Shown: positions 848 through 1,511 of the stretch, piece by piece
Position numbering within the stretch: position 1 is the first letter of the stretch
How the letters are laid out: every line of letters begins with the position of its first letter
NCBI GenBank assembly: GCA_036867785.1
Contig: CP145412.1
Span: 1,612,001-1,659,604 of the forward strand
Direction of reading: 5' to 3'
Source: Plasmodiophora brassicae
Lineage: Eukaryota
DNA: 47,604 nt
Translations under genes and position numbers: made by a program
Notes under the pieces: generated by a model
What the model was told of the DNA's origin: nothing
Database searches by the model: none
What the model saw: only the letters and a program-made list of their open reading frames with translations

Positions 848-1511
848 TCCGCTGACAGCGCACGGCACATAAAGCCTGCCAAGCAGTTGCCGGCCAGCTG
901 TTGTTCCCCACAGTCAGTATGGGGGTGTTACACCCCACGCGCGTTACATGGGTGTGGTAGTCGTGCAATGGGGATCCGGTTGATGTCATTTGGGTTTGGG
1001 CGGTGGGCGCGATGACGTCGGGGGACGAGATGAAGACGTCGTCCGAGTGCCGACTCTGTTGGCAGAAGCTGTTCCGCAACGACGAGCGGTGGAAGACGGA
1101 GCTCGCTCGCCGTTCACCGTCCTTGACGGTAGGGACCCACTGAAACGCCTCAAACTGACGTATAATATCATTTGACTTCCAGGCATGCCAGTGGTATTAT
1201 ACGTCACTTGATGCGTTTCAGTGGGTCCCTTCCGTCAGGTTTGGTGAACGGCTCGCGAGCTCGGTCGTCAACCGCTCGCCGTTGCGGAACAGCGTCTGCC
1301 AACATATTGGACACTCGGACGACGTCGTCATCTCGTTCCCCGACGTCATCGCGCCCACTGCCCGAAACCAAATGACATCAACCGGGTTCCCATTGTACGA
1401 CTACCACAGACATGTAACGCCCGTCGGGTGTAACACCCCACTCACTGTGGGGAATTACAGCGGGCCGGCAACTGCACGGCAGGCTATGAGCCGTTTTGCG
1501 CTGTCAGCGGA
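848..1511 (+). ncRNA. Long imperfect inverted repeat (~325-bp stem, loop ~1175-1188); candidate hairpin-RNA / small-RNA precursor
   Basis: 848-1174 is the reverse complement of 1189-1511 (e.g. TCCGCTGACAGCGCA vs TGCGCTGTCAGCGGA; AGGGACCCACTGAAACGC vs GCGTTTCAGTGGGTCCCT). Mismatches are mostly 1x1/2x2 loops and G-U wobbles on the + strand. The inverted repeat is certain; RNA function is inferred. Confidence 0.6.

Follow-up and report, generated by a model that had tools for sequence, protein, structure and literature searches.

The window analysed here is a stretch of 47,604 nt from Plasmodiophora brassicae (GenBank assembly GCA_036867785.1, contig CP145412.1, positions 1,612,001 to 1,659,604 of the forward strand). 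Its genes encode a PPR-E-DYW protein, two chromovirus-type Ty3/gypsy polyproteins, a GH71 protein, a WS/DGAT protein, a phosphatidylserine decarboxylase and an MFS transporter. The window ends in a (TTTTAGGG)n telomere repeat (47393-47604), and TTTTAGGG is the telomere repeat described for P. brassicae (PMC6823432; bioRxiv 10.1101/2024.04.03.587992). The locus under study is an inverted repeat at 848-1511, with a nucleotidyltransferase gene directly downstream of it. The main features of the hairpin and of its surroundings are as follows.

848-1180, + strand: left hairpin arm, 333 nt (repeat search, fold and alignment)
1181-1511, + strand: right hairpin arm, 331 nt (repeat search, fold and alignment)
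953-1033, + strand: best duplex core, with helices of 41 bp and 38-39 bp and its partner at about 1328-1408
1919-3619, + strand: gene for a Trf4/Cid1-like non-canonical nucleotidyltransferase (PF22600, PF01909), directly downstream of the hairpin
3780-6359, - strand: gene for a PPR protein with E and DYW deaminase domains, a single exon of 859 aa ending in ...CSCGDYW, GC3 0.91
39606-44944: full-length chromovirus with identical 200-nt LTRs at 39606-39805 and 44745-44944

The inverted repeat and its surroundings

The inverted repeat covers 664 nt and lies exactly where the first-pass annotation of this DNA had placed it; the two pairs of short sequences quoted there as examples are both present in the hairpin. 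According to the repeat search, the ends of the hairpin are perfectly complementary over 15 nt (848-862 / 1497-1511), the outer arms (873-918 / 1440-1485) show 87% complementarity and the core arms (922-1153 / 1208-1439) 88%. When the left arm is aligned globally with the reverse-complemented right arm, 284 positions match, 43 mismatch and 10 columns hold gaps; the arms have no exact word longer than 21 nt in common. Both strands were folded, a check that the first-pass annotation had proposed. The + strand reached a minimum free energy (MFE) of -561.6 kcal/mol, compared to -250.8 ± 6.2 kcal/mol for 20 shuffled sequences, and the - strand reached -545.0 kcal/mol (z -36.8). With 293 pairs in the + strand MFE structure and a z score of -49.8, this extended inverted repeat is predicted to form the kind of long dsRNA stem that characterizes a hairpin-RNA (hpRNA) locus. 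The 293 pairs are distributed over 28 helices, the longest of 41, 38, 18, 17 and 15 bp, and the apical loop has 10 nt (1177-1186) with 1176/1187 as the innermost pair. The longest nearly unbroken duplex measures 80 bp on the + strand (953-1033, broken once) versus 33 bp on the - strand; in the + strand form of this core there are six G:U pairs, no A:C mismatch and one other mismatch.

Long inverted arms with 15-nt perfectly complementary termini could also be left by a foldback transposon or a MITE, and we therefore looked at copy number and at target-site duplications (TSDs). As the first-pass annotation had noted, no obvious TSD is present: none longer than 4 nt was found at the hairpin boundaries, even when these were shifted by up to 8 nt. 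No second copy exists within the 47.6-kb window (repeat search; blastn-short matches of at most 17 nt). In the DNA sequencing run X12, only a single contig reaches at least 90% likeness to the hairpin; it is 8,789 nt long and continues unbroken through both hairpin ends. No paralogous ORF was found in the protein libraries. The dispersed copies with TSDs that the first-pass annotation had named as the mark of a mobile element thus did not appear, and the hairpin looks single-copy. Because it is apparently single-copy and without TSD, we do not class it as a MITE, and an origin as a transposon remnant is highly improbable. In searches for known RNA families, Rfam gave no match at the gathering score in the window and the tRNA search found none. 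The mir-5985 matches at E ≤ 1 on both strands of the hairpin apex scored 25.4 bits against a gathering score of 100 and are due to chance, as is the match of a 21-nt arm word to a metagenome contig, which is alike over 26 nt only.

The surroundings of the hairpin contain several further features. The proximity of a gene for an RNA-tailing enzyme to a hairpin RNA locus could be fortuitous. The PPR-E-DYW protein is a plant-type C-to-U RNA editing factor encoded in a plasmodiophorid; judging by titles and abstracts, the papers found that name both DYW and Plasmodiophora concern plants, and within Rhizaria it is ascetosporeans for which DYW proteins have been discussed (PMC11946409). A second, inverted copy of the chromovirus (45133-47405) begins 191 nt beyond the full-length element and runs into the telomere repeats from about 47393, so that the chromosome end appears to be capped inside a retrotransposon. 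The two chromovirus copies form an inverted repeat of 2,273 nt with 99% complementarity (42669-44941 / 45133-47405), which is another potential source of dsRNA. A third inverted repeat, of 445 nt and 98% complementarity (15988-16432 / 23824-24268), has its arms 7.4 kb apart; it sits in Asp/His-rich ORFs and flanks the MFS gene and the gene of a 572-aa ORF.

Transcription, splicing and strand

To assess transcription, sequencing runs were searched with sampled words of the hairpin. Fourteen DNA runs contain all of the words, and six runs that we guessed to be RNA (from five studies, labelled with other organisms, none of the runs being recorded as RNA) contain 38-48% of them. Contigs of three guessed RNA runs from three studies (X15, X16 and X19) and of the DNA run X12 were placed on positions 1-3000 of the window. 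In all three guessed RNA runs, contigs join across the GT..AG intron of the nucleotidyltransferase gene (2685-2748, 64 nt), confirming this intron, whereas those of X12 do not. We conclude from this difference that X15, X16 and X19 contain P. brassicae RNA. Contigs on the hairpin and on both of its flanks are present in 3 of 3 RNA runs, and their placement, with the features derived from it, is given below.

X15: contigs at 438-994, 979-1219 and 1512-1819
X16: contigs at 441-936 and 1261-1838
X19: contigs at 620-907, 1064-1127 joined to 1182-1283, 1376-1598 and 1582-1778
438-1838, + strand: putative transcription unit (approximate extent of the RNA contigs, whose ends are weak hints only)
1129-1182, + strand: GT..AG intron of 54 nt with the 5' splice site GTAGGGAC (one X19 contig, depth 5.6)

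The contigs of X15, X16 and X19 start at 438, 441 and 620 and end at 1819, 1838 and 1778, respectively; the starts at 438 and 441, which come from two studies and lie 3 nt apart, hint weakly at the end of a transcript. No single RNA contig of the three runs spans the whole stem, and both arms are seen in one RNA only at the apex, through the spliced X19 contig (record 17, + strand). The inner stem is without cover at 1220-1511 in X15, at 937-1260 in X16 and at 908-1063 and 1284-1375 in X19, and the stretches 322-437 and 1839-2104 are without cover in all three; such gaps can be read neither as silence nor as processing. Contig depth is 3-16 in the hairpin unit and 42-337 in the neighbouring genes, with one figure per contig, which is no measure of expression. 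Carried-over DNA is a conceivable source of the unspliced contigs in X15 and X16.

The joint in the X19 contig, 1064-1127 to 1182-1283, corresponds after the permitted one-base shift to an intron at 1129-1182, whose removal takes away the left arm's apical end together with half the loop. This joint comes from a single contig in one run, and three lines of evidence make it credible. The 5' splice site GTAGGGAC is identical, as an 8-mer, to that of the confirmed intron 2685-2748 in the neighbouring gene. The public gene model of this locus (P0001, protein SPQ95284.1) has an identical junction. Finally, a jump of the k=31 assembly between the arms is unlikely, since the exact words that they share never exceed 21 nt. 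The spliced form retains 250 arm-to-arm pairs, with 1128/1233 as the innermost pair and a loop of 50 nt. The intron also distinguishes the two strands: a T:T mismatch at 1130/1231 causes the - strand to read GA at the corresponding place, and the GT is present on the + strand only. It thereby gives independent support to a + strand RNA. The folded + strand RNA that the first-pass annotation had proposed is thus supported both by the RNA contigs covering the hairpin and by an apical GT..AG intron unique to that strand.

The same contigs bear on the possibility that the hairpin is a structured part of a neighbouring transcript, either in a long 3' UTR of the gene to the left or in a long 5' leader of the nucleotidyltransferase gene, where it would influence stability or translation in cis. 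The genes on either side are both expressed; the right one is on the + strand and the left one is probably on the + strand as well, ending at 238 according to its GC phase; all three would then stand in tandem. However, no RNA contig of X15, X16 or X19 links the hairpin unit to either neighbour, and the two nearly coincident contig starts hint, weakly, at a separate end. The RNA contigs of the nucleotidyltransferase gene start at 2105-2132, downstream of its first ATG at 1946. We consider a neighbour's UTR very unlikely as an explanation of the hairpin.

Arm divergence and haplotype comparison

The first-pass annotation had counted about 12 G-U pairs versus about 2 A-C mismatches on the + strand and had taken this bias as a sign of selection on the folded RNA. 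In the global alignment, the transition-type columns of the + strand comprise 11 G:U pairs and 3 A:C mismatches, so that the counts hold in a formal alignment; the significance does not hold to the same extent, 11 of 14 being marginal (binomial p = 0.057 two-sided, 0.029 one-sided). When two loop-proximal columns of doubtful alignment are removed, the figure becomes 9 of 12 (p = 0.146). Within the MFE structures there are 12 G-U pairs on the + strand and five on the - strand. When the 14 transitions were oriented at random, an 80-bp duplex arose on either strand in 3.2% of 20,000 trials (p = 0.032). The G-U bias is a genuine count and is statistically only suggestive. A mutational skew linked to transcription could mimic such an excess of G-U pairs. 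This source finds no support in the keto skew, which amounts to -0.12 and 0.00 in the two flanks and ranges from -0.05 to +0.06 across the coding strands of seven window genes.

The 43 differences among the 327 aligned bases of the arms consist of 14 transitions and 29 transversions. Because there is no transition excess, RIP-like or deamination decay is ruled out as the cause of the arm differences. The ratio of 14:29 does not differ significantly from the spectrum of 10:9 among the single-nucleotide polymorphisms (p = 0.16). By phase, the arm mismatches number 15, 11 and 11, without a pattern of codon positions.

A comparison between haplotypes gives a second view of the locus. X16 and X19 carry one common alternative haplotype, with all differences shared. 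In the left flank this haplotype differs from the window at 689, 697, 699 and 752, and in the right flank at 1521, 1541, 1554, 1682 and 1720, which amounts to nine substitutions in 734 covered bases; in addition, a 3-nt insertion is present at 573. The exons of the neighbouring gene show nine differences in 832 bases. In contrast, no difference was found in the 483 covered bases of the hairpin (848-936, 1064-1127 and 1182-1511, X16 and X19 combined). The difference between hairpin and flanks has a Fisher p of 0.014, and that between hairpin and flanks plus exons a p of 0.011, both figures describing one alternative haplotype in runs chosen by exact hairpin words, a choice slightly biased to identical hairpins. 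Among the six differences in X16 record 11, one has no assigned position; it lies probably near 1838, since X19 covers 1182-1283 and shows none there. The hairpin locus shows signs of constraint.

These observations bear on the plainest alternative, namely that the hairpin is an inert relic: an old intergenic inverted duplication with background or read-through transcription, no selected RNA function and no meaningful output of small RNAs. The spectrum of arm differences resembles that of long neutral decay, the mismatches ignore codon position, the G-U bias is marginal, and no target was found in the window or among the searched proteins. Set against these points are the absence of differences from the hairpin of the second haplotype, a functional splice site confined to one strand and the retention of an 80-bp, near-perfect duplex on that strand. 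Furthermore, a transcribed stem of 250 bp would be unlikely to escape the dsRNA-cutting RNase III reported for this organism (PMC13547706). We regard an inert relic as an unlikely account of the locus, albeit one that deserves to be kept in mind.

Coding-like arms and a candidate hairpin-RNA precursor

The first-pass annotation had seen no credible ORF at this locus. That description has to be revised, since a spliced ORF and an annotated protein, both without relatives, are found here.

1012-1542, + strand: the orphan ORF annotated as public record P0001 (exons 1012-1128, 1183-1394 and 1461-1542)
922-1439, no strand assigned: three-base GC periodicity of the arm cores, a coding-like signature of the duplicated fragment

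The public record (SPQ95284.1, UniRef100_A0A3P3Y587) is an uncharacterized, unnamed P. brassicae protein of 136 aa in a single-member cluster, and it is encoded exactly by the three exons. The second of its predicted introns (1395-1460) is unspliced in both of the RNA contigs that cover it, and with this intron retained the transcript has a spliced ATG ORF of 158 codons. Two other ATG ORFs, of 64 and 101 codons, lie upstream of it in the transcript. In a phmmer search with the right-arm frame 1159-1542 (127 aa), the only match among 1.84 billion representative proteins was SPQ95284.1 itself, and a word-indexed search with the 60-aa opposite frame among longer proteins had no match; of the six frames, these two were the ones compared with the large libraries. 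For ten ORFs taken from the arms and the adjoining flanks, no Pfam family scored above its gathering threshold, the sole match at E ≤ 1 being Vexin on the ORF at 683-1015, with 14 bits versus a cut-off of 25. No homolog or known domain was thus found for a protein of this locus in the searches made, and no complementary target or parent was found in the window (blastn-short) or among the searched proteins. One of the source names of SPQ95284.1 carries the tag '(mitochondrion)', yet the locus lies on a nuclear sequence that bears a telomere and has about 60% GC; the tag is probably an annotation slip.

The composition of the arms accounts for the open frame in another way. At coordinates equal to 0 mod 3 the GC content is 78% (left core) and 73% (right core), compared to 47-56% in the other phases. 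This periodicity has p = 0.001 in the left core and p = 0.005 in the right core, and none is seen in the flanks (p = 0.89 and 0.69). The genes of the window show a like pattern, with GC3 of 0.67-0.91, and by its composition the duplicated fragment looks like former coding sequence. Any two paired coordinates of the core add up to 2361, a multiple of 3, and for this reason the codon position that carries the GC-rich phase is identical in the two arms. Owing to this shared phase and to the rarity of codons ending in A, one frame is open through both arms, hence the gene-finder call. The uncharacterized protein SPQ95284.1 probably stems from a gene model placed on top of a hairpin RNA.

The contrary possibility is that a true orphan protein-coding gene lies here, producing the 136-aa protein or, with the second intron retained, one of 158 aa, and that the hairpin is incidental to it. 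The 54-nt intron preserves the frame of the ORF at 1012-1542, this frame has a GC-rich third position in both arms, the gene is annotated in the public record, and the absence of polymorphism would equally fit purifying selection on a protein. However, the one match among so many proteins is the record itself, in a cluster of one, and no Pfam family is recognized. Translation of the ORF would follow the common ancestral sequence in its sense direction through one arm and in its antisense direction through the other. The symmetry of the repeat, combined with its GC-rich third positions, accounts both for the in-phase periodicity and for an antisense frame that is open. The ORF comes after two upstream ATG ORFs, its N-terminus is by eye not hydrophobic, and the intron predicted at 1395-1460 is not removed in the RNA contigs. 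A genuine orphan gene is, on this evidence, a distinctly unlikely reading.

Other work on P. brassicae describes a pathway into which a hairpin RNA would fit. The organism is reported to have two Argonautes and neither Dicer nor RdRP (PMC13547706, Zhang et al. 2026). Long dsRNA is cleaved into 21-mers in vitro by PbDRL, a Drosha-like RNase III, and 90% of the small RNAs measure 21 nt; a bias to 5' C, phasing at 21 nt and overhangs of 2 nt are also reported (PMC13547706). The same paper gives a catalogue of 234 miRNAs and 78,890 siRNAs, reports palindromic loci as sources of 21-nt RNAs and calls the source of the dsRNA for the siRNAs unknown (PMC13547706). The Dicer-processed precursor proposed in the first-pass annotation therefore has to be restated for an organism described as lacking Dicer, in which PbDRL makes the 21-nt RNAs (PMC13547706).

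We favour, by a modest degree of confidence, the view that the locus is a candidate hpRNA precursor of small RNAs, a class already described in P. brassicae, because a transcribed fold-back with an 80-bp core would be a natural substrate in such a pathway. The three-base periodicity of the arms suggests how it may have arisen, through duplication of a coding fragment in inverted orientation, which would have left the old inverted repeat that now forms the arms. A + strand transcript of about 1.3-1.4 kb, probably made by Pol II, would traverse both arms, and the apical 54-nt intron would be spliced from it optionally. The RNA would then fold into a stem of about 250-290 bp, with the nearly perfect 80-bp core at 953-1033 / 1328-1408. 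Where RdRP and Dicer are absent, such a fold-back could provide PbDRL with a ready dsRNA substrate, to be cut into 21-nt duplexes that would be loaded into PbAGO1/2, and the parent coding fragment would be the likely target of the putative small RNAs. The enzymes and the palindromic small-RNA loci in this account are taken from the literature, and the processing of the hairpin, its targets and any regulation or cross-kingdom role of its putative small RNAs are inferred. A more ambitious proposal, that this is a selected, intron-bearing hairpin gene derived by inverted duplication of a coding fragment, which supplies dsRNA and whose 21-nt products silence a gene of the parasite or of the host during clubroot, is speculative, and we think it improbable as a whole.

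Comparable arrangements occur in other systems. Intron-spliced hairpin (ihpRNA) silencing constructs are man-made and have an intron at the loop of a long hairpin, and the budding yeasts that lack RdRP have palindromic siRNA loci in which fold-back is the dsRNA source, within a fungal Dicer system. The loop intron of the former and the RdRP-independent fold-back dsRNA of the latter resemble the hairpin at 848-1511 and may serve as a lead only. The hpRNA loci of Drosophila are thought to originate by inverted duplication of the gene that they silence, and their pathway employs Dicer-2/Loqs-PD and AGO2. In the Drosophila hpRNA endo-siRNA loci (PMC10317233), a long inverted repeat is transcribed into one RNA that forms a stem of several hundred bp, an arrangement that the P. 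brassicae hairpin probably shares; P. brassicae, however, is described as lacking Dicer, and no target gene was found for the hairpin at 848-1511 in the searches made. The coding-like periodicity of the arms would fit a recent inverted copy of a gene fragment, as in the inverted-duplication model for young plant MIRNA genes (PMC3237417, PMC1790633), but the stem is far longer than that of a mature MIRNA hairpin and the parent gene was not found. The closest likeness is to the palindromic small-RNA loci reported for P. brassicae itself, which are in the same organism and likewise consist of an intergenic palindrome with a long stem, the precursor type of the Figure 2G legend (PMC13547706). For the hairpin at 848-1511 we describe an intron at the apex, an annotated ORF that overlaps it and a lack of differences between haplotypes; this hairpin may already figure among the small-RNA loci catalogued in that paper (PMC13547706).

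The likely spurious protein annotation over the hairpin bears on counts of effectors and orphan genes in P. brassicae. With its coordinates, stem, strand and apical intron mapped, and with its signs of constraint, the hairpin locus offers a concrete test case for the origin of siRNAs in this organism. Transcribed fold-back loci would be the simplest answer to the question of where the dsRNA for the P. brassicae siRNAs comes from, as that question is posed by the authors who described them (PMC13547706).
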